DNA from: a virus
Lineage: Duplodnaviria > Caudoviricetes
IMG/VR virus record: IMGVR_UViG_3300033463_000014
Location: 64,001 to 128,000 of that record
Strand: one strand, 5' to 3'
DNA: 64,000 nucleotides
Numbering within the stretch: position 1 is the stretch's first letter; every line of letters begins with the position of its first letter. The position numbers and the translations under genes were made by a program. Of this stretch, positions 2,615-53,634 are shown piece by piece. Under the pieces are notes generated by a model, which was not told the DNA's origin, searched no databases, and saw only the letters and a program-made list of their open reading frames with translations.

Positions 2615-3361
2615 TTACCCAATCTGAACGGTCAGCGCATCCGGGGCCCACAGGCTCCTGTTCCTCTCGAGCCATGAGTCCGCCATATTTTTTTTCCTTC
2701 TGGAGAACGACGCGCTTCCCAGATGCTCGATATACGGGTCGAGCGACTTTATGCGATGGCCCTTTAGCCCGCGCTCCTCGCAGTCCCTGTAGAACCACGC
2801 CCCTGTGTCGTAGTGCTTGTTCGGGAGATTATTTGAAAGCATCTCCATGAACTCGCCGTTGTAGTACCTTACTCCGGAGTCCCGGACTAACGGAACGTTT
2901 ATGAATGACAGGAACGGCAGAACCCTGTACGGGCAAAGTCCCATCTCATCGTTAAATGCGGAGAAGACCTGGCCCGACCATACGGCATCGTCAACGACAA
3001 AATCACGGATATCCCCCTTCATCAGCACATCGCTGTCAACCAGCATGAACGGCTCGTCGGTGTTGTCGATAAACCATTGGACAGACCTGCAATGCTTGGC
3101 CGACCCGTAGTTCGAGATGCGTGCATCCCTTGCGACCTTGTCCGGAAAACCCCGGAGCATCTCATCGAAGTCTATGACCTTACCGGACGTATTGTCGACA
3201 ACATCTATCCCGACACTTACGGTTTCCGGAGCTACGAAAGGGTCTCTGTCGCTGCTGTCGAATATGACGACACGGTCTATGCCCTTAGCGTTTTTATCGA
3301 TCGACCTTACGGCGGCCGATGTCACGTTGGGGGTATTATAGTGCGCGATGAAAGCTGTCAT
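2615..3361 (-). CDS. GT-A fold (GT2-like) glycosyltransferase
   Basis: IAHYNTP N-terminal strand, VIFDSS, LVDSD (DxD) motif, late HLGSAS; start at the ATGA overlap. Confidence 0.75.
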   Translation of the reverse strand: MTAFIAHYNTPNVTSAAVRSIDKNAKGIDRVVIFDSSDRDPFVAPETVSVGIDVVDNTSGKVIDFDEMLRGFPDKVARDARISNYGSAKHCRSVQWFIDNTDEPFMLVDSDVLMKGDIRDFVVDDAVWSGQVFSAFNDEMGLCPYRVLPFLSFINVPLVRDSGVRYYNGEFMEMLSNNLPNKHYDTGAWFYRDCEERGLKGHRIKSLDPYIEHLGSASFSRRKKNMADSWLERNRSLWAPDALTVQIG

Positions 3362-4134
3362 TCCCACAGTCTCCTGTTCATCTCGATCCATGCGTGGAAA
3401 CTCATCCTCTTCCTATATGACGCGGATCCATAATGAACGATGTATTGGTCTAGAGACTCCAGCCTTTTGCCGTCCAGACCGCGCTCCTCGCAGTCCCTGT
3501 AGAACCACGCCCCAGTGTCGCAATTACTTCCATACTCATCTTCTGAGAATCTCCACATGAAATCCTCATTGAAATAACGCGCTCCCGCATTCTTTACCAT
3601 CGGAACGTTTATGTAACACGCGAACGGCAATATCCTTGTCGGCTTTAAACCATAATCCTCTGAGTATTCCGAAGAACATTCACCAACCCATGCGTGGGAT
3701 TCCGAAACCATTACGGACATGTCACTCTTGCAGAGAACATCGCTGTCAAGGAGTACAAACGGGTCGTCCGAGTTGTCTATGAGCCATTGAACTGACCTGC
3801 AGTGCCTGGCTGACCCGTAGTTAGCCGTCCCCCTCTCAGGGCGTTTCCCCTTTCTCTCGCTCACCATCCTGTCCAGATCAACAAGGTTTCCACCGGTGTT
3901 GTCCAAAACGCGGACGAGGTTTCCTAACCCTTCAGGTATGACGAATGGAAGATGGTCGCTGTTGTCGAAAACCGTTATCCTTGAGACGGAAGGCGTGCTT
4001 TTGACAACCGATTTTACGCAAGCGGACGTGAGGTCTGGGGTGTTGAAATGTACGATGCAGACGCCGATCATGCCATTTCCGTGATCGCAGGAGCCTCTCA
4101 TTCCCGTGTAGCGCAAATATCCTCCTGACATCAC
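3358..4134 (-). CDS. GT-A fold (GT2-like) glycosyltransferase, paralog of the neighbour
   Basis: IVHFNTP, VFDNS, LLDSD and HYGSAS motifs; collinear with 2615..3361. Confidence 0.75.
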   Translation of the reverse strand: MMSGGYLRYTGMRGSCDHGNGMIGVCIVHFNTPDLTSACVKSVVKSTPSVSRITVFDNSDHLPFVIPEGLGNLVRVLDNTGGNLVDLDRMVSERKGKRPERGTANYGSARHCRSVQWLIDNSDDPFVLLDSDVLCKSDMSVMVSESHAWVGECSSEYSEDYGLKPTRILPFACYINVPMVKNAGARYFNEDFMWRFSEDEYGSNCDTGAWFYRDCEERGLDGKRLESLDQYIVHYGSASYRKRMSFHAWIEMNRRLWE

Positions 4135-20571: not shown

Positions 20572-20994
20572 TCAAACATCTCCTGAACCGTCTCCGTCTC
20601 CGTCGCCGTCGTCGTATCCGGAGCCGTAGCCATAGCCGGAACCGCAGCCGTAGCCGGATCCGAATCCGTAGCCAGCGCCAGAGCCGTCGCCGGCGTCGTA
20701 TCCGGAGCCGTAGCCGTCGCCGACGCCGCATCCGTAGCCGCTTCCGTCGCCGAATCCAGATCCGGAGCCGTCGCCTGAGCCGCATCCGTAGCCGCGGCCG
20801 GATCCGCAGCCGTAGCCGCAGCCAGACCCGTCGCCGGCGCCGTCGCCGCAGCCGTGTCCGCAGCCAGATCCGTAGCCGGTGCCGGAGCCGTAGCCGTGGC
20901 CGTATCCGGTGCCGGAGCCGTAGCCTGATCCAGATCCGTCGCAAGAGCTGGAGCAAGATCCGAACTTAAACGGCTTTGCTTTAATTTTGCTCAC
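20572..20994 (-). CDS. Gly-rich (Gx)n repeat protein, Cys-containing variant
   Basis: Short leader, then GYGCGSGDG-type repeats; overlaps the stop of the upstream DUF6948-like gene. Confidence 0.7.
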   Translation of the reverse strand: MSKIKAKPFKFGSCSSSCDGSGSGYGSGTGYGHGYGSGTGYGSGCGHGCGDGAGDGSGCGYGCGSGRGYGCGSGDGSGSGFGDGSGYGCGVGDGYGSGYDAGDGSGAGYGFGSGYGCGSGYGYGSGYDDGDGDGDGSGDV

Positions 20995-21376
20995 ACACTG
21001 CCGCCTCTCTTATTGTCCTCGCCGCCGTTTCGCTGCACGGTATCACCTCATATACGTCTCCCAAGAAGATTTCTGGGAGTTCGTCCGGAAGGGCTATATT
21101 ATTGGCGATGCCATGCACCGCGACCGCAGAGAGCGAAATGCCCTTTTTCGCCTTCCAAGACCACAGCCTACGTGAGTTGACGAGTTGGCAGTGGTTGCCG
21201 TCGTGATCCTTCAAAAATCCCGCGTGAACGCCACAGTAGTAGCCTCGGCATATCACGTACGGGAGTCCGTCGGTGTTCTGAGCGGGGTATTTGGCGGTTT
21301 CGTGGATTGCGCTTCTTCGTACCCACTCCTCGCCGTTTATCGTCATTGTGTCATCTGTGTTCATCTGAGTGTTCAT
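20981..21376 (-). CDS. DUF6948-like protein
   Basis: YVICRGYYCGVHAG...SRRLWSW...ISLSAVAVHG...EVIPC. Confidence 0.75.
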   Translation of the reverse strand: MNTQMNTDDTMTINGEEWVRRSAIHETAKYPAQNTDGLPYVICRGYYCGVHAGFLKDHDGNHCQLVNSRRLWSWKAKKGISLSAVAVHGIANNIALPDELPEIFLGDVYEVIPCSETAARTIREAAVCEQN

Positions 21377-21428
21377 CCTTTGTGTTTTTCATGATGGCCC
21401 TACTCGCTCGAGCTTTCGGGCCATCGTC

Positions 21429-21902
21429 TTACCTGTCGTAGCCGTCGCCGTATCCGGATCCGTATCCGTCGCCGTATCCGTCGCCATAGCCGTCGCCATA
21501 GCCGTCGCCTTCGCCGGCGCCGTAGCCGTTGCCGGAGCCGAATCCGGCGCCGTAGCCGTTGCCGGAGCCGAATCCAGAGCCGTCTTCGTCGCCGGAGCCG
21601 TCGCCGTAGCCGTCTCCATAGCCGTAGCCTTCGCCGTCGCCTTCGCCTGAGCCGTAGCCGCGGACGTAGCTGTCTCCGGAGCCGTAGCCGTTGCCGGAGC
21701 CGAATCCGGCGCCGTTGCCGTAGCCGTATCCAGAGCCGTCTTCGTCGCCGGAGCCGTCGCCGTAGCCGTATCCAGAGCCGTCTTCGTCGCCGGAGCCGTC
21801 GCCTTCGCCAGATCCGTCGCCGTATCCTGAGCCGGAGCCGTATCCGGGTTCTGAATCGGGACTGAAACCGAAGTGCAGTCCGACTTCATCAGGATCAATC
21901 AT
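21429..21902 (-). CDS. Gly-rich (GYGDGSG) repeat protein
   Basis: Start moved to ATG 21902, overlapping the upstream stop; acidic Gly repeats. Confidence 0.7.
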   Translation of the reverse strand: MIDPDEVGLHFGFSPDSEPGYGSGSGYGDGSGEGDGSGDEDGSGYGYGDGSGDEDGSGYGYGNGAGFGSGNGYGSGDSYVRGYGSGEGDGEGYGYGDGYGDGSGDEDGSGFGSGNGYGAGFGSGNGYGAGEGDGYGDGYGDGYGDGYGSGYGDGYDR

Positions 21903-29588: not shown

Positions 29589-30003
29589 TTATAGTGAACA
29601 ATGGTTCTCCCACACCACGGTGGATTTCTCCGGGTTCACTTTGACCCGAAGCTCAACCGAGTACCGGCTTCGGCAGTGTTACACACAGCTGAATGACGGA
29701 TTCTCCGTTTAGGACGATCGATCCGTTCGTCAGAACGGGCGTCGGTTCGATGACGCGAATTTCCGGCGTAAGATTCAGTAGAGCTTCGCCGTCGAGAATG
29801 CGCGAGCGCTTGAGTTTTTGGTGCAGTTCGCTCCCGAGCTTCGCCCGGATGCTCGTCGTCACGTAAGAATTGTCGTTCACGCAAAGCATGACAGGCGAGC
29901 AAATAGCGGGCAAGACGCTTCGTAGCGTGAGTCTGCCCTCTTTCTTTAGGTTAAGCGTCACCGACTCGGTGTTAGCCGGTATGTCCAGATCGATCTTCTG
30001 CAT
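29589..30003 (-). pseudogene. Tandem duplicate copy A, apparently frameshifted near its 3' end
   Basis: Near-identical to 30014..30385; the shared CRSR motif and the following YSVELRVKVNPEK... are out of frame. Confidence 0.5.
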
Positions 30004-30013
30004 TGTCTTCTCC

Positions 30014-30385
30014 TCATCTTACTTCTGTTTCCTGCACGTTCCTTCCGCGAGAGCGGCAGTCCACCTTCGGCGGCGTCACACATAGCTGAAGGACGATCGA
30101 TCCGTTCAGCACGATGATGCTGATTTCTGGCGCGAGGTTCAGGATAGCTTCGCCCTCGAGGATGCGCGAGCGCTCGAGGATGCGCGAGCGCTCAAGCTTT
30201 TTGAGCAGGTCGCTCCCGCTCTTAGCCCGGATACTCGTCGTCACGTAAGACTCGTAGTTCACGCAGAGCATGACAGGCGAATGAATAGCGGGCAAGACGC
30301 TTCGCAGCGTGAGTCTGCCCTCTTTCTTTAGGTTCGGCGTTACCGATTCGGTGTTCGCCGGAATATCCAGATCAATCTTCTGCAT
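30014..30385 (-). CDS. Tandem duplicate copy B (internal RSRILE duplication, apparently truncated)
   Basis: MQKIDLDIPANTESVT... start shared with copy A. Confidence 0.5.
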   Translation of the reverse strand: MQKIDLDIPANTESVTPNLKKEGRLTLRSVLPAIHSPVMLCVNYESYVTTSIRAKSGSDLLKKLERSRILERSRILEGEAILNLAPEISIIVLNGSIVLQLCVTPPKVDCRSRGRNVQETEVR

Positions 30386-30681
30386 TGTCTTCTCCTTGTT
30401 TCACTTCGGTTTCGGTTTCGTGAACGCTCCAGACAATGCACCCGCCGTCCGGGAGAACCAGTATGGCGTCGTCGTCCGTGTCGAACGGCGTCGTGTTTTC
30501 GTCCGGCGGCGAGTGCAGGTCCCGCTCGATATACTCTTCCTTGAAGTCGTCCACCATCGCGGAATGGGCATGGTCCCCATGCAGGAACGTGTAGCAGGCC
30601 GACCGTACGTAACCGTACTGGTTGAGCCAGATCTTTTCCAGAACCCACACTCTCATCTGACCTCCGTCCTCACTGTAAGTT

Positions 30682-32126: not shown

Positions 32127-32341
32127 TCCTTGTCTCCTTCTTTATTCCTGTAATACTCCTCGACCACTCTCGCGATCTTTTCGGATTCTTCCCGCTCTGG
32201 GCGGTTGACGAATTTTCTCCCGCACCTAGGGCAAAACCTCGGATCCTTCCCCATGTCGCTGACAGCCGTGCGGCAATCCCTGCAGGCGCGTATGATACGA
32301 ATGCGCCCCCTGCCGATTCCTTCCACGTCGATGATCTTCAT
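32123..32341 (-). CDS. Zinc-ribbon protein
   Basis: CRDC...FCPRCG. Confidence 0.6.
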   Translation of the reverse strand: MKIIDVEGIGRGRIRIIRACRDCRTAVSDMGKDPRFCPRCGRKFVNRPEREESEKIARVVEEYYRNKEGDKE

Positions 32342-32754
32342 TCCGCTCCTTCTTTATCCTCTGTGGCAAAAAGCCACTTCAGCACATCAACATAAAGATT
32401 CAGGAACCCAACCCTTTCTCTGTGAGCATCCTCAAAAGCACTGCTTGCCTCTTTCCATGTCGCAAACTTGTCGCAGTTCCTCGACGGTTTGGAGAGGGCG
32501 TAAGACGCCCAGTTCTCGATCCAGTCAATCGCGTCTCGCACGCACGGCACGACATTTGGATTCCTCTCTCTCAATTCTGCGATTTTATCAAGAATCCAAG
32601 ACAGCGCCTCGCGCATCGCCGCGGCGTTGCAAACGGGCGGATGTTCTTGATACGTCGGTGAGTTGCATCCGTTCGGCTCACCGTAGTATTCGCAGTATGT
32701 CGGCTCGATCTCGCCATCAGCGCATTTGATGCAGGTCTCTTTCCAGTCTTTCAT
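32338..32754 (-). CDS. RNCD-family mosaic protein
   Basis: NAAAMREAL...PSRNCD...WLF...EGAE; first ~50 aa near-identical to 51110..51520. Confidence 0.75.
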   Translation of the reverse strand: MKDWKETCIKCADGEIEPTYCEYYGEPNGCNSPTYQEHPPVCNAAAMREALSWILDKIAELRERNPNVVPCVRDAIDWIENWASYALSKPSRNCDKFATWKEASSAFEDAHRERVGFLNLYVDVLKWLFATEDKEGAE

Positions 32755-32792
32755 TCAACGCCTCCTTCCTCATTCCCTATAGCTTTTCCATC

Positions 32793-33686
32793 CTAGCCCT
32801 CCGCCTCAACGATTTTGCCGCATTTCATTGTGTACCACGTGTCTGCCTTGTACTTTTCGCCGTCGATGCACACCATCTTCGCACCGCAAAGATACCAGTT
32901 GTAGTTGGGCACATCATTTCGCCAGTCAGCGAGGACGATATGAGAACCTTTCACGCCCCTGGCCTTGCCGTGGACGCCCCATGCGACGGCAATAGCGGTT
33001 TCGTTTTCTGCGCTTGCTTCGGAGTTGTAGCCTGTTGCGCTTGCGGCGGAGCGGACGCCCGTTGCGCTTGCGACGGAGTAGTCGCCCGTTACGCTTGCGG
33101 CGGAGCAGTCGCCAGCTGCGCTTGCGACGGAATTATAGTCAGTTGTGCTTGCGGCGGAGCACTCGCCCGTTACGCTTGCGGCAGAGTAGTGGCACATTGC
33201 GCTTGCGGCGGAGCACCTGCCCGTTGCGCTTGCAACGGAGTGATGGCCTGTTGCGCTTGCAACGGAGTGATGGCCTGTTGCGCTTGCAACGGAGTGATGG
33301 CCTGTTGCGCTTGCTGCGGAGCGGACGCCATTTACGCTTGCGAAACCATGATCTTCATAAGCTTTCGCCTCTGGCTTGACCCGCGCAATCGTGTAGTCGA
33401 TAGCGGCCTTGACCAGCCCGGCGAATGTCAGCCGCGCTCCGATAGTGATCTTCGTCGCTGCAATCTTCGAATCTCCACCATTATGGTCGATGTCGCCTCC
33501 CATCTCAACTTCATGATACACCGACTCGTCGTACAGACAATAATAATACAGGCAATCAAGCGGGTTTTCGCAAGCATGAAAACCCTCTCTACAACAACTG
33601 GCTCTGTCCGTCTCGTATGACTTGCCCTCCTCGTACTGGAATCCGCGGCAGGTCATATCCTTATTGAAACCCTTATAGGCCTTCAT
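32793..33686 (-). CDS. DUF7666-like protein with 9-aa (SVASATGxx) repeats
   Basis: MKAYKGFNKDMTCRGFQYEEG...GFHACENPLD; C-terminal IDGEKYKADTWY. Confidence 0.8.
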   Translation of the reverse strand: MKAYKGFNKDMTCRGFQYEEGKSYETDRASCCREGFHACENPLDCLYYYCLYDESVYHEVEMGGDIDHNGGDSKIAATKITIGARLTFAGLVKAAIDYTIARVKPEAKAYEDHGFASVNGVRSAASATGHHSVASATGHHSVASATGHHSVASATGRCSAASAMCHYSAASVTGECSAASTTDYNSVASAAGDCSAASVTGDYSVASATGVRSAASATGYNSEASAENETAIAVAWGVHGKARGVKGSHIVLADWRNDVPNYNWYLCGAKMVCIDGEKYKADTWYTMKCGKIVEAEG

Positions 33687-34662
33687 CCCAATCCTCCACC
33701 CTAACGATTTTCCCGTCACGCAGAGCATACCACGTGTCGGGCTTGTACTCAGACCCGTCGATCCGTATCGCCTTAACTCCGAGGACGTTATGTTCGACAT
33801 CGCGCTCGGTCAGCACAAGCCAGCATCCTATCGCACCGCGCGCCATGCAGTTGGCGCCCAGGACGGCAGCTATGGCGTTCTTACCTTTTACCTCTGCGTT
33901 TGATAAGTCTCCGGTAGCCGCTGCGTTTGATAAGTCTCCAGAAGCCGATGCATGTGATTCGACCCCGGAAGTCGTTGCGTTCGACTCGTCTCCTGAAGTC
34001 GCGGCGTGCGCTCTGTCACCCGAAGTCGCTGCGTTTGCGTTGTGTCCAGAAGTAGCGGCGCCTGCGCTGCCTCCAGCAGTCGCGGCGTTTGAGCCATCTC
34101 CCGAAGTCGCGGCGTGTGCGAAGGCTCCGGATGTCGCGGCGTGTGCGAAGGCTCCGGATGTCGCGGCGTGTGCGAAGGCTCCGGATGTCGCGGCGTGTGC
34201 GCTGCCTCCAGCAGTCGCGGCGTTTGAGCCTTCTCCCGAAGTCGCGGCGTTTGCGCAGACACCGGAAGTCGCGGCGTATGCGAAGTCTCCGGATGTCGCG
34301 GCGTGTGCTAAGGCTCCCGAAGTCGCGACGTGTTCATGGCCTACAGGAGAAGCATTTGCTTTATTTAACACAAAGCTGGTTCCAGCCTTGACCATGTCAG
34401 CCATAGTCATCCTGGGGCCGATTTTGATTCTGGTCGATGCTACCTTCGTCCCTCCTTTTTCGCTGACGATTTCGCCGTCAAGCTCGACCTCGTGATAAAC
34501 GGATTCGCCCGGTTGGTAGTAGAAAAAACAGTCCAACGGGTTCTCACATGCGTGGAACCCGCATTCACAAATTTCAGCCAGGTCCGTCTCGTACGACCCG
34601 CCTTCCTCGTACTGGAAGCCGCGGCAGGTCATATCCTTATTGAAACCTTTATAAGCCTTCAT
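33673..34662 (-). CDS. DUF7666-like protein with 9-aa (ATSGxxAxA) repeats
   Basis: Same N- and C-terminal domains; 27-bp tandem repeats at about 33880-34330. Confidence 0.8.
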   Translation of the reverse strand: MKAYKGFNKDMTCRGFQYEEGGSYETDLAEICECGFHACENPLDCFFYYQPGESVYHEVELDGEIVSEKGGTKVASTRIKIGPRMTMADMVKAGTSFVLNKANASPVGHEHVATSGALAHAATSGDFAYAATSGVCANAATSGEGSNAATAGGSAHAATSGAFAHAATSGAFAHAATSGAFAHAATSGDGSNAATAGGSAGAATSGHNANAATSGDRAHAATSGDESNATTSGVESHASASGDLSNAAATGDLSNAEVKGKNAIAAVLGANCMARGAIGCWLVLTERDVEHNVLGVKAIRIDGSEYKPDTWYALRDGKIVRVEDWDEGL

Positions 34663-36345
34663 CCCTAATTCCACCCTTTTAACCCTAGCACAACATGGCG
34701 TTGGGGTCGTTCTTGACCAGCCTCACGATCTCACGGCACAGGCAGAACCGCTCGTCCTGCTCCGTGTGCAGTTTATCGTAGTTCCCTTCATCAAACTCGA
34801 CGCCCGCGTTCATGAGGCGGCGCTGAAGGAAATCGACATACCTGTCGCGCGCCCGATCATACCTGATAAAACGGTCGACCAGCTCCCGCAGGAGCTGGCC
34901 TTCCGTCATTTCACCGATGTCCTTAACCTTTCTGTCCATTGACACTTAGCACCTCCGTCTTGTAGACGGTCCAGACAATCTCCCTGTCAGAACCGGTGTA
35001 CCTGTACATCCTCACGCCGACGCTGGAACTCTCCGGTCTTGACAGCGTCTTCCGGACCTCAGTCCTGATGTCGCTATCGGAGTAGCTCATGCCATAATAG
35101 TTCTCGCGGACTCTGTTTGTTACCATCTGCCTGAGCATCCTTTCGCAGGACTTCCTGTCATCCAGCACGACAGCCGTTGCGTTCAGATGTCCTGGAATTG
35201 ATTCAGCTCCATAGCACGTCAGTCTGAACAACTCGCTGACAACCCAGACTTTTCCCATGGCCGAACACTCGGATGCATGACCGTTCTGTCTTACGAAAAC
35301 CCTCTTACCGCATGGATCAAATCCAACGATCATTCTTGTTTCCTCCTCCTGACCGGAGCGACACAGTCCCAGACCTCACCATCGGAACCGAGAAGATAGT
35401 ACCTCTTCTTAAAGTCCGAAGGCCATCCCGCAAGAGCAAGGGCTGGCATCACGAAGCTCCTCAGGTCGCCCGAGGCGAACACCTTCTTTGAGAACGGAAG
35501 AAGATAACGGGACGTGCCACTCGATGACAGCGAAACGCCGTTTGAAAGGCCTGTGTCATTTACGCGCAGCGTCCTTCCGCTTAACGTTATTACGGAAACC
35601 GCACCGTCGGCACGGTTCCCGTAAACGTCACAACCGAGAGACCCGTCGTGATCATTAACGAATCCGATTGAGACAACGCCTATTCCGGGACGGTAGAACA
35701 GATATCGCCCCTCGTACCTGTAACGGTTGCATGGGACATATCCGTCCGCGCACACTGTCGGCATGTTCTTCTTGAAAGCCCTCTTGACCTTGTCAGTCCA
35801 CACGCAACCGTCCGGCCCGCCTTCATTCTTCTCCGTATTCGGAATCATCCCTCTCTTCATACCCTCCTACTCCATTCTTCTTATCCATGTCCAGAGTCAC
35901 CCTCATCTCATGAGGGGAACCTATCCCAAGATAGTTCGGCGAGTAGTCATCGTCGCCTGACCACATCATGATGTTTGCGTGGGACGCATGCCATCCTTTC
36001 CCCAGGTTCTTGGCCTGGCGGATGATCTCCTCCGCGTCAGCGATTATATCCGGATAGACCAATTGGTCTCCAATCCTGATATTGACAAAAACGGTTATAT
36101 TCCATGACGAACCGCCGCACCTCCTCTCGATGTGTATGTTTCTTATTCTATCGCGCGGTATACCCTTGTTCTTTTTCTTGCCTGAGCTCATTTTTCCTCC
36201 TTGGAATCGTTCGGCACCCACTCCGAAAGCTTATCGGAGAGGGTCGTCTCCTTCCGTTTCCTGCACACAGAGCCGATCGCATATCCGATCGCTACCGAGA
36301 AACTCCACACAATAACGCTCACCGCAAACACATCAACACCGTTCA

Positions 36346-47301: not shown

Positions 47302-47652
47302 TCATTCCAACACCACCCTTTCCCCGAGGCTGATTACGTAGTGCGGCGCGTCGGGCTCGCCCCACTCTGGATGCGGGTGAGGCCTGTAGCCCACTACGTA
47401 CAAATCGCCAATCGGCCACGGATGCGCTCGGAAGAACATGCCCGGCTTCGCGTACCCGAGAGAAAACGCAACAACAAGATACGTTTTCCTGCCACACAAC
47501 CGTCGATCAATCCAGTTTCTGATTCTCACGTCCCAATAGAGCTTTTCTTCACGGTACTCCTCCTTCTTTTCTCCGCTTGCGATCATGTCGTACCACTTTC
47601 GCTTCAGCGTGAGGTTAAGCACGGAGCAGTCTTCTCGTTTCAGCGTTTGCAT
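47302..47652 (-). CDS. ASCH-domain protein
   Basis: LNLTLKRKWYDMIASGEKKEEYRE...FSLGY...WG...YVISLG. Confidence 0.8.
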   Translation of the reverse strand: MQTLKREDCSVLNLTLKRKWYDMIASGEKKEEYREEKLYWDVRIRNWIDRRLCGRKTYLVVAFSLGYAKPGMFFRAHPWPIGDLYVVGYRPHPHPEWGEPDAPHYVISLGERVVLE

Positions 47653-48230
47653 TCTTTTCCACTCCCTATTTCGCTGTCTCTCCGTATCGCATCCTTACTA
47701 TTGCAACCAATGATCATGTCGCTACTTTCTTCTCCTTTCTTCGATATCATCCACTTCACTACGCACTCCGCGCAGTTGTGGGGGCATTGAGTCCTCGGAT
47801 CTTCCCAGTCGTTATCGTAATGATCGCAAACTTCCGACCTGAATCTCCTTGTGATTTCTTCTGCGGATTCAGCTGTGTCACAATTCCTCGATGGCTCGAC
47901 CATGGCATGCCTCATCATGGCAATGCACATCTTCATGCACCCGACAAGGAACAAAACATCATCACCGAAGTCTTTGTCGGCGACGGCTTCGTTCATGTAC
48001 TTCGAGCACAACTCCAACGTTTTGCGCATCGCATTTGTGTTTCCGGCTTCATGTCCATATACCTCTTTGTTCATCCTATCGCAGATGGATTCTGCGCGTT
48101 CGATCCTCCAATCCCTGTAAGTATCAGTGTCCCAGCGGAACAATACATCGTGATTCGACGAGCAACGTATCGCCACGACAGAAGTCCCGTAATCAACATA
48201 GAATGGCTTTCCTCCTCCCGTTATACTCAT
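47640..48230 (-). CDS. RNCD-family mosaic protein
   Basis: GNTNAMRKTL...EPSRNCD...KWM. Confidence 0.7.
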   Translation of the reverse strand: MSITGGGKPFYVDYGTSVVAIRCSSNHDVLFRWDTDTYRDWRIERAESICDRMNKEVYGHEAGNTNAMRKTLELCSKYMNEAVADKDFGDDVLFLVGCMKMCIAMMRHAMVEPSRNCDTAESAEEITRRFRSEVCDHYDNDWEDPRTQCPHNCAECVVKWMISKKGEESSDMIIGCNSKDAIRRDSEIGSGKECKR

Positions 48231-48438
48231 TCAGCGCCTTCTTCCTTCTCTATGAGTTCAGCAAGGTGTTTGATGTCTTCGCTGATCCGGTTTAGGTTTT
48301 GGTACTGCTCAACGAGCCGGTGTAGCGCGTTGTCCGCAGTGAATTCGCCATACCCGACACCTCGAATAGCGTCGTAAATACATAAGCAGGAAGAATCAAC
48401 ACGAAATGACAGAGAAATCAGTTTGCCCCTGAGGTCCT

Positions 48439-48699
48439 TCATTCATCACCGCCTTTCTTATCCGCCTTTGCGTACAGCCACTCATCGAACTTCTTTTGGT
48501 CCTGCATATCATCTGCGCAATCGTTCTGCCATGCGACCCACGCTTCATGCAGATTCTGATACGTGTCGCAGTTCCTCGCGGGCGCGGCGAGGGCGGCGTC
48601 ACACCTAATGACCGGCTCCACAAAACCATTGAGGGCCAAAACATCACGAGCATACTTTAGCGCGTCTCGGAGCGCGACGGCGTTTCCGTTTTCAGCCAT
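48439..48699 (-). CDS. RNCD-family protein (minimal form)
   Basis: GNAVALRDAL...ALAAPARNCD...WLY...KGGDE. Confidence 0.7.
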   Translation of the reverse strand: MAENGNAVALRDALKYARDVLALNGFVEPVIRCDAALAAPARNCDTYQNLHEAWVAWQNDCADDMQDQKKFDEWLYAKADKKGGDE

Positions 48700-48700
48700 T

Positions 48701-49000
48701 TTACGCCTCCTTCCCTTCCTGGGCAAAGAGCCAGCGCACAAACGCGAAAACCTCGTCCATATCGTCCCACAGTTCGATGTCGGCCCAAACCTTGTGTCCG
48801 CGAATCCTCTGGAACTCCAGCCGCGCCTCCTCCGCCGTTGCGAATCTGTTGCAGTTGAGCGGAGGTGTAGAAAGTGCGTAACGAGCATTTTGTGCCAACT
48901 GGTGTAGCACAGGTGAGATGCTCATACAGCAACGACAAGTGGTCTGATAATAGGAGATCATAGACTCAAGCGCCTCTCTCATCTGCTCGTATGCGTTCAT
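48701..49000 (-). CDS. RNCD-family protein
   Basis: MNAYEQMREAL...ALSTPPLNCN...WLF. Confidence 0.7.
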   Translation of the reverse strand: MNAYEQMREALESMISYYQTTCRCCMSISPVLHQLAQNARYALSTPPLNCNRFATAEEARLEFQRIRGHKVWADIELWDDMDEVFAFVRWLFAQEGKEA

Positions 49001-49344
49001 TCCGCACCTCCTTCATCCGCCGTGGTGAGGGTCCACAGGCCAAACCAGTATTCTGGTGTCAGGTTTTGGTTGTACTTCCACAACTCGTTCTCAAGAAAGT
49101 AATCTTTAGCGGATATGTAGTCATCGAACTTATCGCAGTTCCTCGCTGGCGCGGCGAGGGCTTTTTGGATTGCCGTCTTCGCCTCGCACAAATCACGATG
49201 TCCGCACAGTATGTCACCACAGTTCGCATTTATCGTGCTGTTCTCCCAAGCGAGACTGTCGCAAGTATGATTTGCTCGGGCATGGTTGCATATTGCCTTC
49301 TTCGCTATCTCCAGCGCCTCGCGCATCTGCTTGTATGCGTTCAT
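48997..49344 (-). CDS. RNCD-family protein
   Basis: MNAYKQMREAL...ALAAPARNCD...WTL...EGGAE. Confidence 0.7.
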   Translation of the reverse strand: MNAYKQMREALEIAKKAICNHARANHTCDSLAWENSTINANCGDILCGHRDLCEAKTAIQKALAAPARNCDKFDDYISAKDYFLENELWKYNQNLTPEYWFGLWTLTTADEGGAE

Positions 49345-49724
49345 CCCTTCGCCTCTCCTTCCGCCGTGTACGGCATCTGCGCCCACACCAATTGACACGA
49401 TTCGCTCCCTGTTTGCCTAAAATCCCATCTCGCATGAACAGGGCAATCACAACAATCTTGCGCTTTGCATTGTTTTCTGTATCGCTCGTACTGCTCCTCC
49501 GCCGTGCCAACGTCGCAGTTGCGGCGCGTTTCAGCGTTCTCACCCTTCACCTCAACAACGATGACGAACACGTCCTTCGAGTCTCTCCTCTCCTCGATCC
49601 GCACCCCCGCGATGTCGAGCGGGATCCTCTCCCCGTCCCGCTCGATCTCCACCGGCACGTTCGAGTCAGACAGCCTCTGCGCCATCCTCCCGATCTCCGT
49701 CGCCACCGTCATCCACCCCATCAT
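49341..49724 (-). CDS. RNCD-family chimera (unrelated N-terminus)
   Basis: RRNCDVGTAEEQ...WAQMPYTAEG. Confidence 0.7.
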   Translation of the reverse strand: MMGWMTVATEIGRMAQRLSDSNVPVEIERDGERIPLDIAGVRIEERRDSKDVFVIVVEVKGENAETRRNCDVGTAEEQYERYRKQCKAQDCCDCPVHARWDFRQTGSESCQLVWAQMPYTAEGEAKG

Positions 49725-49911
49725 TTCGACACCTCTTTTTTCATCTTCCGATCCTTCTTCCTAACGTAGTACTGGCACTCTCCCGGCGAGCACGGCTTGT
49801 CGTCCTCCATCTCGTCTAGTTCGCAGAAACAGTGCGAGACAACCCTCTCGCATTCACTGTCAAGCACGATACCCGTTCTAAAGAACGCGCACTTGCTGTT
49901 TTTGTGGGCAA

Positions 49912-50301
49912 TCATCGGCTCGCATCCCCTTCCGCCGTGTACTGCATCTGCGCCCATTCCAATTGGCATAGCAATTCACCATGTCCTTCCTGCCTTAATT
50001 TTATGTGTATAGGGCAATCTTCCGCGCATCTCACATTGCCTCTATATGAGCATGGATTGTATCTGTCCGTGAATTTACAATACCTTCTAGACTGCTCATC
50101 CGGCGTCCCCACGTCGCAGTTGCGGCGAGGAAGGTCAAGGGCGGCGCGGGCTTCTTTGAGAACTGATAGGGTGTGCTCGCTATTCATGTGGCAGTTGGGC
50201 GATTTGATTGCTATGGCTAGCGTATTCTCATCAACCCCCATGTTATACAATACATCAAGAAGTTTCTCCAAAGCCTCCCTCATCTGCTCGTATGCGTTCA
50301 T
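49912..50301 (-). CDS. RNCD-family protein
   Basis: MNAYEQMREAL...PRRNCDVGTPDEQ...WAQMQYTAEG. Confidence 0.7.
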   Translation of the reverse strand: MNAYEQMREALEKLLDVLYNMGVDENTLAIAIKSPNCHMNSEHTLSVLKEARAALDLPRRNCDVGTPDEQSRRYCKFTDRYNPCSYRGNVRCAEDCPIHIKLRQEGHGELLCQLEWAQMQYTAEGDASR

Positions 50302-50789
50302 TTGGGGCCTCCCTCCTGTTCGATCCGCTCTATGTAACGAACGGCATCTGTGAGCGTGTCGCACTCCGTGACGCTCGTCAGTCTTTCGTCGTTCTTTGAA
50401 ACGCGCCAACGGACATGACCGTTAATCCTGTCGTAGCCGTAGATAGTTATACAAGTTATAACATACCTTCCGTCGAAGTAGTATTGGCTAGCATCGACCT
50501 TTGTCAATCTGCCGCCTATCATTCCGCCCTCCTTTCCCTGCTGGTCGCAATTTGCTATACCAGAACTTGCGCTTTTCGCGCTTCCACAGCAACCGCGCAA
50601 TCTTGCAAACAATCTTGTCCCTGTCTTCATGGTAGTCCAGCTGTTCGCCAAACACCCAACCAACTGCCCATTCGTATGACGCATCATAGCGGAGGAGCGT
50701 TACCTCCCCGTTTGTCGTTCCAAAGCGGGAAATTTTATTGTAGAAGATGTTTCGCGCCTCTCTTCTTATTTTGCGTAGTAGTTTAGTCT

Positions 50790-51113
50790 TCATTCAGCAC
50801 CGCCTTTCCTTTTGCGATAGTGTTCATGATCGAACATCTTTACCAACTGATCCTCTCTCATACCTTGTACTTTATGGTTGCAGAAATCTACCAAGTCTTT
50901 AAGCGTTCCATCAACCCAGTGCCGTATGACTCTAAAATCATCAGCAAGTTTTGTCTCTCTAAATCTGTAGTGGTATCTCTTGAAATCTTTGCACGCATAA
51001 TCAATGTTGATTTTCGCCGCCCTAAGATGCGCGAGGATTATTGCATCCTCGACAATTTCAACATCGTCAATGGTCGTTGTCTTCGCTTTGCTCTTCTTCT
51101 TTCGCTCACTCAT
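50790..51113 (-). CDS. Hypothetical protein, AT-rich cassette
   Basis: ATGA-coupled on both sides; ends KGGAE. Confidence 0.55.
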   Translation of the reverse strand: MSERKKKSKAKTTTIDDVEIVEDAIILAHLRAAKINIDYACKDFKRYHYRFRETKLADDFRVIRHWVDGTLKDLVDFCNHKVQGMREDQLVKMFDHEHYRKRKGGAE

Positions 51114-51520
51114 TCCGCGCCTCCTTTCTCCGCCTGGTCGAAGAGCCACGCTTCGGTTGAAATTTCAACTCCTATGATTCGACCTTGCGCATCTTTCGGG
51201 TGGTTTCGCAATTCGGAGTACATTTCCGCCAAAGACAAGAACAAATCGCAGTTCCTCGCCGGTGCGGCGAGGGCTGCCATCGTCTTGTTGTATGCTGTTT
51301 CGAACAGTCCTCTCATATACTCGTTCATCGGATGGTCTACCCTCCATAGGTAGTCCATACAAGATTCCAGCGCCTCGCGCATCGCCGCCGCGTTGCCAAC
51401 GGGCGGATGTTCGTGATACGTCGGTGAGTTGCATCCGTTCGGCTCACCGTAGTATTCGCAGAACGTTGGCTCAATCTCTCCGTCTGCGCATTTAGCGCAA
51501 ATTCCATTCCAATCTCTCAT
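51110..51520 (-). CDS. RNCD-family mosaic protein
   Basis: CADGEIEP...GNAAAMREAL...ALAAPARNCD...WLF...KGGAE. Confidence 0.75.
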   Translation of the reverse strand: MRDWNGICAKCADGEIEPTFCEYYGEPNGCNSPTYHEHPPVGNAAAMREALESCMDYLWRVDHPMNEYMRGLFETAYNKTMAALAAPARNCDLFLSLAEMYSELRNHPKDAQGRIIGVEISTEAWLFDQAEKGGAE

Positions 51521-51577
51521 TTCTCTCCTTCTACCCGCATTCATACACGACACAGCCAATCGTCACTTCCATTGAGC

Positions 51578-52492
51578 TTACCCCATCTTAACGATCTTTC
51601 CGCCACAGAGCGCGTACCATGTGTCGGGCTTGTACTTTTTACCGTCGATCCGTATCGCCTTCACGCCGAGGACGTTGTTTTCGCCGTCGCGCTCGGTGAG
51701 GACAAGCCAGCTTCCTAGCGATCCACGCGCCTTGCAGTTGGAGCCAAGGACGACCGCTATGGCGTTCTCTCCCATTGACTCGGCTTCTGAAAAATCACCG
51801 GCAGCAACTGCGTTTGACGAGTCTCCCGAAGTTATGGCGGTTGCGCCGAGTCCCGAAGTCATGGCGTGTGACCTGAATCCGGAAGTTTTTGCGCATGCGT
51901 TTATTCCGGTAGTTGCGGCGTTCGCCCAGGATCCAGAAGTCTCGGCACTCGCGCCGTATCCAGAAGTCATGGCGTTCGCGTTGTTTCCAGAAGTCGCGAC
52001 GTGCGCGTTGTTTCCAGAAGTCGCGGCGTGTGCGAAGGCTCCCGAAGTCGCGGCGTTTGCGAAGGCTCCCGAAGTCGCGGCGTTTGCGAAGACACCGGAA
52101 GTCGCGGCGTGCGCGTTGTTTCCAGAAGTCGCGACGTGCGCGTTGTTTCCAGAAGTCGCGACGTTTGAGCAGCGTTTTCTCGTACCAGCATGTGCTCTGA
52201 CAAAGTCGATTTCAGCCTTGACCAGGTCAGCTATAGTTATCCTGGGTCCGATCTTGATTCTGGTCGAAGCTACCTTCGTCCCTTCGCCGTTGTGTACGAT
52301 TTCGCCGTCAAGCTCGACCTCGTGATAAACGGATTCTCCCGGTTTGTAGTAGCTGAAACATTCCAACGGGTCTTCACAGGCGTGGAATCCGCATTCACAA
52401 ATTTCAGCCCTGTCCGTCTCGTAAGACTTGCCCTCCTCGTACTGGAAGCCACGGCAAGTCATGTCCCTGTTAAATCCTTTATAAGCCTTCAT
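51578..52492 (-). CDS. DUF7666-like protein with 9-aa repeats (third copy)
   Basis: MKAYKGFNRDMTCRGFQYEEG; ATSGNNAHV repeats; close DNA similarity to 33673..34662. Confidence 0.8.
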   Translation of the reverse strand: MKAYKGFNRDMTCRGFQYEEGKSYETDRAEICECGFHACEDPLECFSYYKPGESVYHEVELDGEIVHNGEGTKVASTRIKIGPRITIADLVKAEIDFVRAHAGTRKRCSNVATSGNNAHVATSGNNAHAATSGVFANAATSGAFANAATSGAFAHAATSGNNAHVATSGNNANAMTSGYGASAETSGSWANAATTGINACAKTSGFRSHAMTSGLGATAITSGDSSNAVAAGDFSEAESMGENAIAVVLGSNCKARGSLGSWLVLTERDGENNVLGVKAIRIDGKKYKPDTWYALCGGKIVKMG

Positions 52493-53634
52493 CCGCACCA
52501 CCTTTCCTATCCCTCTTTCTGAGATTAAATGACTCGCACAGCGTATAGACAGGCATGCCGGTGTATGCGCTCACAGCGTCGTCGTACGTCCGCTGCCACT
52601 CACCGTAGTATAATGGGCCTCCGAAAATGCAGTCGCAATACGCGATGAACCACTCGCCTGTCTCGTGTGGTGGTATCACATAGCCGTCACCTCGACACGG
52701 AAGACTGATTCTCCCCCTTTCGCATTCATACTCAATAAAGCGCTTCCATCTCTTGTAAGGACTTTCCCCTAAATCCGGATTGTTTAGAATGAAAGCCATT
52801 TCGTCATCGGTTCCAGTGAACTTGAACGACGCAACCTCTATAGGGCTCCCGCAGTCTTCGCATTCTTTGAGATAGACATTTCCGTTATTCGCTATGAAAA
52901 TGTCATCTCTGCTTCTGATCTCGTCAAGAAGATCTCCTATAATCTCCATGAGCTGCCTTGAGCTTAACTTCTCCAGCATCATCCTGCCCTTTCTTCCCCT
53001 TTCCGTCCATTCCGTCTGAATCAGGCCACTCTTTGTTCTCTTTTAAAACCTTCTTTTCACCACATTTCTCCTTTCTTTTTTCGTTTAGTCCAGAGTTGTT
53101 CGCGCGCGTTCCTTCCTCGTAGAACACGCAGCCTTTACTCCTGCACCTTACGTATCCTTCCTGAAGACCGCAGGCCCAGTACCTTACGCTTTTCCATGGC
53201 TCTCCGTGGAAAAGCCCGCTCCTTATGCTAATCGCGCGGAAGGCGTGTCTGCATGTTTTCATTAACGCTCCTTATCATTGCTTTTAAATCTGTCGCCGAT
53301 CTCGTAGTCCGGGCATCCGCCATCAGTGTTCCTCGCGATCGCCGAAGGGAAATCATTCCACCATCCCTGCCCCGGCTTTCCGACTTCCGGATCCGTATCT
53401 TTCTCGCACATGAATCCGTCTGGAACAGCGTCCTCTATATGACCGAACCCTACATACCCTCCATCATCACCTTTTACGAAAGCCCCCCTGAATTTGCATG
53501 AAAGGCAGTTTCTGTGCCCTGGATCAAATCTGCAGTCGTGACGGGAAGGTGTCTTAAAATTTTTCCCGCACCACCTGCATCGGTACATTGTAACCTTTTC
53601 CATCGATCTCATTCCAGTTCCTCTATTCCACTTC

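Follow-up and report, generated by a model that had tools for sequence, protein, structure and literature searches.

Probable exchange of protein modules at short conserved DNA islands among small phage proteins of a large family that has no name

Seven genes of a single family occupy positions 47640 to 51520 of the window (the whole 64,000-nucleotide stretch of DNA that we analysed, part of the 181-kb genome of a cattle-gut phage), where they are part of a series of small non-structural genes; the family has its eighth gene at 32338-32754. All eight are on the minus strand, and they are the genes that the first-pass annotation had grouped together; when the complete genome (181,382 bp) was scanned for the motifs, no further family genes turned up. 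Two short motifs, NAxxMREAL (anchor 1) and ALxxPxRNCD (anchor 2), are common to all eight. The segment between them is a variable middle module, and anchor 2 is followed by a second, predicted helical C module that exists in many alternative versions, of which type I has WLFAPA at its end and type II runs from VGTxEEQ through a Cys-rich stretch to WAQMPY. Optional N modules (a Zn knuckle, a Lar-like Zn ribbon and others) can precede anchor 1. AF2 models place the anchors, at the level of secondary structure, at opposite ends of one helical hairpin (pLDDT of 82 for 49912-50301 and of 79, with the core above 90, for 32338-32754), and the core of ~95 amino acids is predicted to be a long alpha-helical hairpin opened by anchor 1 (NAAAMREAL) and closed by anchor 2.

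The eight genes combine these parts differently. The gene at 47640-48230 (196 aa) has NTNAMRKTL as anchor 1, VEPSRNCD as anchor 2 and a Cys-rich C module, and its N module is unique in the array and recurs in the metagenome protein P0078. The gene at 48439-48699 (86 aa) encodes only the core, with NAVALRDAL and ALAAPARNCD as its anchors, and its C module (TYQNLHEAW...) is found after different middle modules in P0125, P0132 and P0141. The product of 48701-49000 (99 aa) has MNAYEQMREAL at its very start and a variant anchor 2, ALSTPPLNCN, and its C module likewise follows different middle modules in P0101, P0104, P0129, P0138 and L017. At 48997-49344 (115 aa), the start MNAYKQMREAL leads into a Cys/His-rich middle module and ALAAPARNCD; the 11 members of this middle-module cluster are combined with 10 distinct C-module clusters. 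In the 127-aa product of 49341-49724, an unrelated N domain is fused straight onto RRNCD, which is followed by a type II C module (VGTAEEQ ... WAQMPY), and a type II C module also ends the 129-aa product of 49912-50301, which starts with MNAYEQMREAL and has LDLPRRNCD as anchor 2. In the 136-aa product of 51110-51520, a Zn-knuckle N module leads into NAAAMREAL, and a middle module then connects to ALAAPARNCD and a type I C module; the gene at 32338-32754 (138 aa) has the same Zn-knuckle N module joined to other middle and C modules.

A third anchor, W(L/A)x...EGGAE, had also been proposed. Its first part, the W-L-F or WAQMPY stretch, is indeed a protein motif. Its EGGAE end is mostly the Shine-Dalgarno sequence of the next gene together with an ATGA stop/start overlap, and is better read as a translation-initiation region: the last codons of family genes encode the ribosome-binding site and start of the following gene, and 55 of 60 family genes have a Shine-Dalgarno-like motif within their last 20 nt.

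The anchors were said to be conserved as DNA, and the three sequence motifs quoted in support were found where they had been reported, with no match to any of them in 100 shuffles. The first, a 29-mer, is the anchor 2 island that encodes ALAAPARNCD, and it lies on the minus strand at 48566-48594 (gene 48439), 49133-49161 (gene 48997) and 51246-51274 (gene 51110). A 21-mer occurs at 48980, 49324 and 50281. A second 29-mer occurs at 49357 and 49928 and corresponds to the C-terminal island of the type II module (WAQMPYTAEG; 49357-49385, minus strand, with a second copy at 49928-49956). The other end of that module, together with anchor 2 (RRNCDVGTxEEQ), forms an island at 49490-49526 on the minus strand of gene 49341, 89% identical to 50091-50127 in gene 49912. 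A composite island, again on the minus strand, spans a gene boundary at 48965-49024, where the upstream gene's tail and Shine-Dalgarno sequence are followed by ATG-NAYEQMREAL; additional copies lie at 49309-49368 and 50266-50325.

Similarity between genes switches at these islands, as had been claimed. The Zn-knuckle N module through MREAL (51368-51521, minus strand) and its counterpart at 32602-32755 share 154 bp at 87% DNA identity, and the match ends on the final base of the MREAL codons. Gene 49912 is a mosaic: the opening 12 residues are shared with 48701 and 48997, and the half that follows RNCD is shared with 49341 (39% identity over 88 aa, E = 4e-17), a gene whose N-terminus is unrelated. 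GC content is also higher in the anchors (0.63 and 0.73) than it is in the variable modules (0.52 and 0.55). Within the window itself, identical codons at the anchors exceed expectation only modestly (64 observed against 45 expected, and 98 against 83), and the strong DNA evidence comes from related phages. The array paralogues are old (25 to 47% amino acid identity) and can be aligned over the whole core. The modest excess and the whole-core alignment would fit an ordinary paralogous family with motifs under protein constraint and fast-evolving linkers, in which the mosaic would be an illusion or the product of chimeric assembly at shared k-mers. We nevertheless regard this account as highly improbable, given the comparisons with other phages described below.

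For these comparisons we used 61 family genes from ~45 other phage contigs, retrieved with a pattern that was fully degenerate at synonymous positions. Third-position identity was 0.53 to 0.65 in the anchors and 0.25 to 0.36 in the flanks, and pairwise nucleotide identity was 0.57 to 0.78 and 0.27 to 0.31, respectively. The Arg codon of MREAL was CGC in 52 of 60 genes (background, 26%), the first Ala codon of anchor 2 was GCC in 50 of 59 (background, 23%) and the Leu codon of anchor 2 was CTC in 44 of 58 (background, 25%). The DNA conservation of the anchors exceeds what codon bias would predict. Codon conservation is not confined to the anchors: all the other conserved motifs of the proteins show it, the Zn knuckle and WAQMPY among them. 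Anchors and other motifs stand as islands of ~30 nt between which the DNA cannot be aligned.

Silent-site conservation this strong might also mean that the anchors are functional DNA or RNA sites, either the target of a dedicated site-specific enzyme or regulatory or structural RNA, with exchange catalysed there or arising as a by-product, and the AGG variant of anchor 2 does contain a 6-bp inverted repeat, CCTCGC...GCGAGG. The repeat is missing, however, from the common ALSAPP/CGC variants. Furthermore, every anchor copy is on one strand in direct orientation, two scans of the whole window and genome revealed no copy outside the family reading frames, and the phage has no tyrosine or serine recombinase and no template repeat that matches the array region, all of which leaves this explanation with a very small probability.

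A different cause of the codon conservation, such as position-specific codon selection, would be needed if recombination were illegitimate and could occur anywhere, with selection keeping only those in-frame joints that fall at sub-domain boundaries, where the conserved motifs happen to lie. The spread of codon conservation to all motifs is consistent with such an account. What argues against simple optimal-codon selection is that Ala codon choice depends on position within one and the same anchor, GCC here and GCG there; some position-specific codon constraint at the family motifs may nonetheless be at work.

The positions at which similarity ends bear on the same question. Among alignments of at least 60 nt with at least 88% identity (88 to 100%), 50 of 118 internal HSP ends (42%) fell in one of the two anchors, regions that account for 7.8% of the sequence, and another 19 fell at the gene end or Shine-Dalgarno sequence; a few lay outside the anchors. 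Similarity was confined to the stretch from anchor 1 to anchor 2 in the pairs L007/L001 and L020/L045, to the region between anchor 2 and the gene end in L019/L045 and L009/L048/L004, and to the portion up to anchor 1 in L011/L006 and L046/L023. Modules also assorted independently: between-locus pairs with a common middle module had unrelated C modules in six of seven cases, and those with a common C module had unrelated middle modules in nine of ten.

One crossover could be mapped to a short tract. In a set of three nearly identical phages, gene A of L002 corresponds on its left to gene A' of L004 and on its right to the neighbouring L004 gene X, and the joint lies within TCTCCGCGCCCGCGAGGAA, a 19-nt tract of anchor 2 that is identical in both parents; no bases were gained or lost.

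These observations bear on the accounts by ordinary paralogy and by illegitimate joining. In many independent contig pairs, segments of 90 to 100% DNA identity give way at the anchors to DNA that cannot be aligned; this, and the failure of middle and C modules to predict each other, argues against ordinary paralogous divergence. Chimeric assembly has in its favour that islands of the anchors' length suffice to break k=31 graphs. Typical short reads are, however, 100 to 150 nt long and should span anchors of ~30 nt, and the L002 and L004 arrangements each recur on independent contigs from different sources. Illegitimate joining, for its part, would fit with the shortness of the perfect homology tracts, the lack of a detected recombinase gene in the phage and the few HSP ends outside the anchors; what makes it unlikely is the clean joint inside an identical tract, together with the occurrence of exact anchor 31-mers in differing genomic contexts of one sample. 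When metagenome runs were compared with the array region at the contig level, contigs from the source run broke at the islands, that at 48566-48594 among them, and contigs from other cattle-gut runs matched the array only at islands of 35 to 45 nt, with unlike flanks.

Taken together, the silent-site conservation, the HSP ends in anchors and the mapped crossover mean that module exchange through short-homology recombination is well supported, and the eight genes belong to a large modular family whose N, middle and C modules are probably exchanged in this way at the islands. Recombination between the short islands would swap the modules, and repeated exchange would keep the islands homogeneous. 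Where the partners are tandem paralogues, the event would amount to unequal crossing-over in which a unit running from RNCD to RNCD is lost or gained across the gene boundary, a possible source of multi-unit fusions; co-infecting phages could serve as alternative partners. The exchange of modules at the anchors, as first proposed, is supported, whereas the idea that it is purely intragenic is not, since the unit may span the boundary.

The mechanism had been described as a dedicated cassette-shuffling system acting on homologies of 20 to 30 bp. The identical tracts available are shorter, 19 nt at the mapped crossover and 11 to 14 nt as perfect runs among the three anchor 2 copies of the window, and because of this we favour short-homology or microhomology recombination with no dedicated system. 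The codon conservation of all motifs, the age of the array paralogues and their modest codon excess count against exchange by short homology, and so do three further points: identity of 11 to 19 nt in the cases examined is below the efficient RecA-type range; searches for RecA, RecT, Erf and Sak4 found none in this phage, nor any other recombinase; and breakpoints at anchors would also be expected if selection for folded proteins filtered random joints. The claim that neither a diversity-generating retroelement (DGR) nor an invertase acts on the array was upheld. The only reverse transcriptase in the genome (157029-157589) belongs to a DGR elsewhere that is unrelated to the family, with its template repeat at 158006-158128 and variable repeats at 158370-158492 and 159599-159721; we rejected the array as its target, as the template repeat has no similarity to the RNCD region. 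A shufflon or invertase was rejected as well, since the anchors are direct and the complete genome has no Phage_integrase or Resolvase match.

The family extends well beyond this phage. Its core profile matched 3,244 clusters (50% identity clustering), 341 of them at E <= 1e-10. The family is thus very large, although it has no name; its members are small proteins (~85 to 250 aa) of rumen and gut phages, and a genome carries several copies. It had no match in Pfam, PHROG, NCBIfam, PDB or GenBank phages, the eight window proteins had no profile match in Pfam-A, PHROGs v4 or NCBIfam 20, and no prior description surfaced in database or literature searches, as the first-pass annotation had supposed. 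Among 140 diverse relatives there were only stray N-module matches (Lar_restr_allev, one; DUF7666, one; phrog_33451, four). Assignment to Lar restriction alleviation (PF14354) was rejected, as no window protein matches the profile; the Lar-like domain is an extra N module in rare relatives only (P0052, P0064 and one A4 member). The Excalibur calcium-binding domain (PF05901) was rejected too, as the window proteins have no Pfam match at E <= 1; a 20-residue resemblance (RNC-DF-TW-EA--F) to repeats of P0144, which we take to be Excalibur-like, extended no further.

Hints of function were limited to the rare Lar-like N modules and an Atlas lead toward Lar (0.77) that is at noise level, and the suggestion of host interaction or anti-defence is no more than a guess. 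The products may, as a tentative and somewhat doubtful reading, be cytoplasmic and partly Zn-binding, with the variable hairpin and C module serving to bind host targets that themselves vary, in take-over or counter-defence. The family models gave no structural match to any adhesin; an adhesin role may nonetheless exist.

In design, the closest precedent is the T-even gp38 adhesins, in which glycine-rich motifs (GRMs) separate hypervariable segments, recombination between conserved motifs is cited as swapping adhesin specificity, and the variable parts are thought to be presented on a structural core made of the conserved motifs (Trojet et al. 2011, PMC3157838). By functional analogy, not homology, the RNCD family likewise has short conserved motifs in fixed order between interchangeable variable segments of a restricted palette exchanged among phages. 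It has no sequence or fold similarity to gp38, which is a virion adhesin, whereas the RNCD proteins are small and apparently non-structural and are encoded in tandem arrays among early-type small genes; moreover, their exchange unit may span a gene boundary, yielding gene gain or loss that could explain multi-unit proteins.

Other systems share some of these traits. Polymorphic toxins carry alternative C-terminal modules behind VENN (CdiA-CT) or PxxxxDPxGL (Rhs-CT), plus orphan modules, and there too a short peptide motif with conserved DNA marks the joint for module swaps by homologous recombination. They have one such joint, whereas the RNCD family has two or more per 95-aa domain, lacks a large delivery domain and a toxin/immunity pair, and is phage encoded and probably cytoplasmic. 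Mosaic phage genomes arise by exchange at conserved boundary or linker sequences and by relaxed homologous recombination via phage single-strand annealing proteins. Here too short conserved sequences serve as exchange sites between phages, but classical mosaicism moves whole genes or blocks, RNCD units are 100- to 200-bp sub-domain pieces within one small-protein family, and searches of this phage detected no annealing protein. DGRs and shufflons also diversify part of a protein in a constant frame. The former require a template repeat and adenine-specific changes, and this phage's DGR (reverse transcriptase at ~157 kb) targets other genes; the latter require inverted sites and a tyrosine (Rci-type) or serine recombinase, whereas the RNCD anchors are direct and the enzyme is absent.

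It is unlikely, in our estimate, that the anchors are selected recombination signals and that rumen and gut phages have in this family an evolved device for combinatorial diversification. If this were so, tandem arrays and co-infecting relatives would be cassette libraries for new combinations of hairpin and C module, matching variable host targets, and the family would amount to an antigenic-variation cassette system of phages, one that uses neither a reverse transcriptase nor a site-specific recombinase, its anchors perhaps acted on by a still unrecognised enzyme.

The analysis defines a large phage protein family that has thousands of sequence clusters and no name in curated databases, and it offers a nucleotide-resolution view of sub-domain pieces of ~100 to 200 bp that would reassort at silent-site-conserved islands, so that the conserved-motif/hypervariable-segment logic of adhesins and polymorphic toxins would extend to phage proteins that are small, apparently non-structural and encoded in tandem arrays. 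If the proteins target host defences or variable host factors, nature would here provide a rich library of binders that all share one scaffold. In practical terms, the anchors break short-read assemblies and could serve as primer sites for amplifying the family repertoire from rumen or gut viromes.

Seven genes on the minus strand of the window, trimmed to 47640-48230, 48439-48699, 48701-49000, 48997-49344, 49341-49724, 49912-50301 and 51110-51520, and an eighth at 32338-32754, also on the minus strand, form the family recognized in the first-pass annotation by the motif pair NAxxMREAL (anchor 1) and ALxxPxRNCD (anchor 2). That annotation described the eight genes as sharing up to three anchors; gene 49341 (genes are named by their window start coordinates) has RRNCD alone. 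The window covers bases 64001-128000 of the complete phage genome, which is 181,382 bp long with direct terminal repeats and a GC content of 58%, and its DNA was found almost entirely in two runs from one bovine gut sample. Scanning the entire genome for the motifs in six frames turned up no additional members. Genes in the RNCD region all lie on the minus strand, closely packed and with frequent ATGA stop/start overlaps; their neighbors are small unnamed genes and genes for DUF7666 repeat proteins. The minus strand encodes three DUF7666 paralogues, at 32793-33800, 33673-34674 and 51578-52501, whose internal tandem repeats are of the ATSGxxAx type. Two of the three lie directly upstream of the RNCD genes with a zinc knuckle, and a DUF7666 match also occurs in one metagenome protein related to the RNCD core. 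Self-comparison of the window further revealed a tandem array at about 20.6 to 21.8 kb (20588-21847; 70 to 77% identity), a duplication of about 300 bp (29748-30031 versus 30112-30413; 80% identity) and a diverged repeat pair (2647-3112 and 3363-3822).

The patchwork described for these genes was borne out. Three DNA strings of 29, 21 and 29 nt had been reported at 48566, 49133 and 51246, at about 48980, 49324 and 50281, and at about 49358 and 49928, respectively; all sit exactly there, with zero occurrences expected by chance. Genes 32338 and 51110 have 154 bp in common (87% identity), and the match stops exactly where the MREAL codons end. Gene 49912 has the start of 48701 and 48997 joined to the post-RNCD half of 49341. 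The modules are also AT-richer, as claimed, with GC contents of 0.52 and 0.55 compared with 0.63 and 0.73 for the anchors.

In AlphaFold models of a type I member (pLDDT, 79; core, >90) and a type II member (pLDDT, 82), anchor 1 opens helix 1 and anchor 2 closes off the long helix that comes next, so that the anchors bracket a helical hairpin, whose length between the motifs is 33 to 62 residues. RNCD lies in the loop after the hairpin, and the C module that follows consists of two or three further helices. An optional N module precedes anchor 1: in genes 32338 and 51110 it is a CxxC...CEYYGEPNGCNSP zinc knuckle, and elsewhere it is one of several unnamed helical modules or, in rare relatives, a Lar-like zinc ribbon. 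The proposed third protein anchor, W(L/A)x...EGGAE, did not survive as such. Its EGGAE, KGGAE or ERKGEGDG tail is GGAGG-type Shine-Dalgarno (SD) sequence, after which comes the next gene's start codon; in 55 of 60 family genes the last 20 nt contain an SD-like motif, and 27 of the 60 end in ATGA. The protein portion of anchor 3 is only W-L-F or WAQMPY.

We then asked whether the anchors are conserved as DNA. Among the genes in the window, identical residues were encoded by identical codons 64 times in anchor 1 (45 expected) and 98 times in anchor 2 (83 expected). The codon bias of the phage is strong. Because this excess was modest, family genes were gathered from other phages with the pattern A-L-x-A-P-x-R-N-C-D, fully degenerate at silent positions and leaving out anchor 1, which yielded 61 different family genes spread over about 45 contigs. 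In this set, codon choice at the anchors is position specific and far narrower than elsewhere in the same genes, upholding the claim of DNA-level conservation. CGC encodes the MREAL Arg in 52 of 60 genes (background, 26%). In anchor 2, GCC encodes the first Ala in 50 of 59 (background, 23%), with GCG favored at other Ala positions, and CTC encodes the Leu in 44 of 58 (background, 25%). Mean pairwise nucleotide identity is 0.57 to 0.78 in the 30-nt anchors versus 0.27 to 0.31 in the flanks, and identity at third codon positions is 0.53 to 0.65 versus 0.25 to 0.36. The zinc knuckle, VGTAEEQ, WAQMPY and WLFAPA show the same codon behavior. The idea of an RNA hairpin at anchor 2 was abandoned, since the common variants lack the stem.

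Assembled metagenomes independently support the conservation of the anchors as DNA: Logan contigs from the source run stop at anchors (48594/48565 and 51396/51367), and contigs from three further gut studies align for just 35 to 45 nt at the anchors before continuing into unlike sequence. Summed Logan depth climbs to 26 and 45 at 48565-48598 and 51366-51400, compared with 14. Together, the contig ends and the rise in depth identify these islands as repeats that break assemblies of rumen metagenomes. The contig "joints" in the region are not deletions; they come from other family members matching two anchors.

When the DNA of the 61 gene regions was compared all against all (at least 88% identity over at least 60 nt), 118 internal segment ends were obtained. 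Anchors 1 and 2, only 7.8% of the sequence compared, took up 50 of these ends, and a further 19 fell at the gene end/SD; reciprocal and overlapping pairs are included in these counts. Among the independent cases, some pairs have in common exactly the anchor 1-to-anchor 2 stretch (L007/L001, 90% over 201 nt; L020/L045, 94% over 127 nt; L numbers denote family loci on other phage contigs), others exactly that from anchor 2 to the gene end (L019/L045, L009/L048 and L004/L009) and others the upstream part as far as anchor 1 (L011/L006 and L046/L023). In a wider set of proteins, the Cys/His-rich middle module of gene 48997 (lying, like all middle modules, between anchors 1 and 2) is paired with 10 different C-module clusters and that of gene 51110 with 8, and 226 distinct module combinations were observed versus 227 ± 3 after shuffling, a test biased toward independence because these proteins are mostly representatives of 50%-identity clusters. 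We therefore repeated the analysis on locus-derived genes: C modules were unrelated in six of seven between-locus pairs with a common middle module, and middle modules were unrelated in 9 of 10 pairs with a common C module. Of the C modules in the window's genes, every one that was checked recurs elsewhere behind different middle modules.

One crossover could be mapped among three phage contigs that are ~97% identical upstream. In L004, gene A' consists of a zinc knuckle, middle module 1, RNCD and C module x, and the gene after it, X, has a new start, middle module x, RNCD and C module 1. L002 has a single gene, A, in which middle module 1 is fused to C module 1. The left part of A is that of A' and the right part that of X, so that the two arrangements differ by one RNCD-to-RNCD unit, as expected if unequal crossing-over had occurred between tandem paralogues. 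The switch lies within a 19-nt tract identical in both (TCTCCGCGCCCGCGAGGAA), flanked by silent diagnostic differences, with CTC/ATC at one end of the tract and AAC TGC/AAT TGT at the opposite end. In L003, this left part continues at anchor 2 into a type II module. Modules are thus swapped, as first proposed, but not by purely intragenic exchange, since the L002/L004 unit crosses a gene boundary. The L002 and L004 arrangements were each seen again on independent contigs. Such replication of alternative forms, together with typical short-read lengths (100 to 150 nt), which exceed the anchors, makes it unlikely that the mosaic junctions are assembly chimeras.

The data fit recombination at short homologies, which would act both inside arrays and from one related phage to another; recurrent exchange would keep the islands homogeneous. 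The main rival, that joints are illegitimate and are filtered by selection for folded proteins, is made less likely by two findings: the L002 crossover falls in a tract identical in both parents, and silent-site conservation is position specific. For short-homology recombination, the enzyme may be the host's, as neither RecA, RecT, Erf or AAA_24 (Sak4) nor a tyrosine or serine recombinase was detectable in the complete phage genome. The latter result agrees with the earlier view that no invertase is involved. A DGR is present outside the window. It comprises a reverse transcriptase open reading frame (462 amino acids; genome positions 157029-157589, minus strand), a 123-nt template-like repeat (158006-158128) and variable repeats (158370-158492 and 159599-159721) 93% identical to the template repeat, inside two paralogues that share 87% identity over 1,115 bp. 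No similarity was found between this DGR (157029-160680) and the RNCD family, in keeping with the earlier view that the family works without one.

With one member as the query, 80 unnamed metagenome proteins were retrieved, and a core profile matched 3,244 clusters (50% identity), 341 of them at an E value of ≤1e-10. Many matched proteins contain two to four core units. In the relatives P0009, P0083, P0086, P0122 and P0216, two to four MREAL...RNCD units share one polypeptide, with the second unit of P0009 directly after RNCD-RF; such proteins look like fusions from the same anchor-to-anchor recombination. Literature searches returned no relevant mention of the motifs, in line with the impression that the family is undescribed, and searches of Pfam, PHROGs and NCBIfam with the window proteins and 140 relatives gave no assignment for the core. 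A sequence profile search of the PDB returned nothing but designed helical proteins (E ≥ 0.007), Foldseek gave no match in the PDB or BFVD at an E value of ≤0.001, a wide VIA-align search gave generic helical hairpins only (residues 41 to 90; Z ≤ 7.3), and ESM Atlas scores (0.84 and 0.77) were under the noise level. A tblastn search of 50,697 GenBank phage records with one type I and one type II member found no match, and a zinc knuckle pattern search for related loci recovered one IMG/VR locus only. One 991-amino-acid metagenome protein (P0144) has eight repeats (PDRNCSDFATWAEAQAFY..DGDGNGIACE), presumably Excalibur-like by their motif, that match core profile positions 50 to 69; this short likeness around RNC-DF-TW-EA may reflect convergence in helix capping or a remote relationship.

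A constant scaffold with variable binding surfaces on display is suggested by several features: R, N-C-D and W are invariant, Cys clusters are frequent, genomes carry multiple copies and modules reassort freely. A role in host interaction or antidefense, as first proposed, is a tentative reading that we consider rather doubtful; the rare Lar-like N modules are the sole link to counterdefense. Interchangeable segments joined at conserved motifs are also the principle of polymorphic toxin cassettes. The gp38 adhesins of T-even phages, in which interchangeable hypervariable segments lie between conserved glycine-rich motifs (PMC3157838), have the same design principle as the RNCD family. New relative to these precedents are the family itself, its size and its sub-domain grain, the arrays of small nonstructural genes with units that cross gene boundaries, and the direct demonstration of junction islands conserved at silent sites.

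Relatives were recovered from gut metagenomes (cattle and others), IMG/VR contigs and contigs in rumen metagenome-assembled genomes (MAGs). Four of the loci (L051 to L054) lie on ~35-kb contigs of 59 to 63% GC in rumen MAGs from sheep and dairy cattle that carry Lentisphaerae or Kiritimatiellae labels; these labels, together with the GC content, hint at the host group of the phages.
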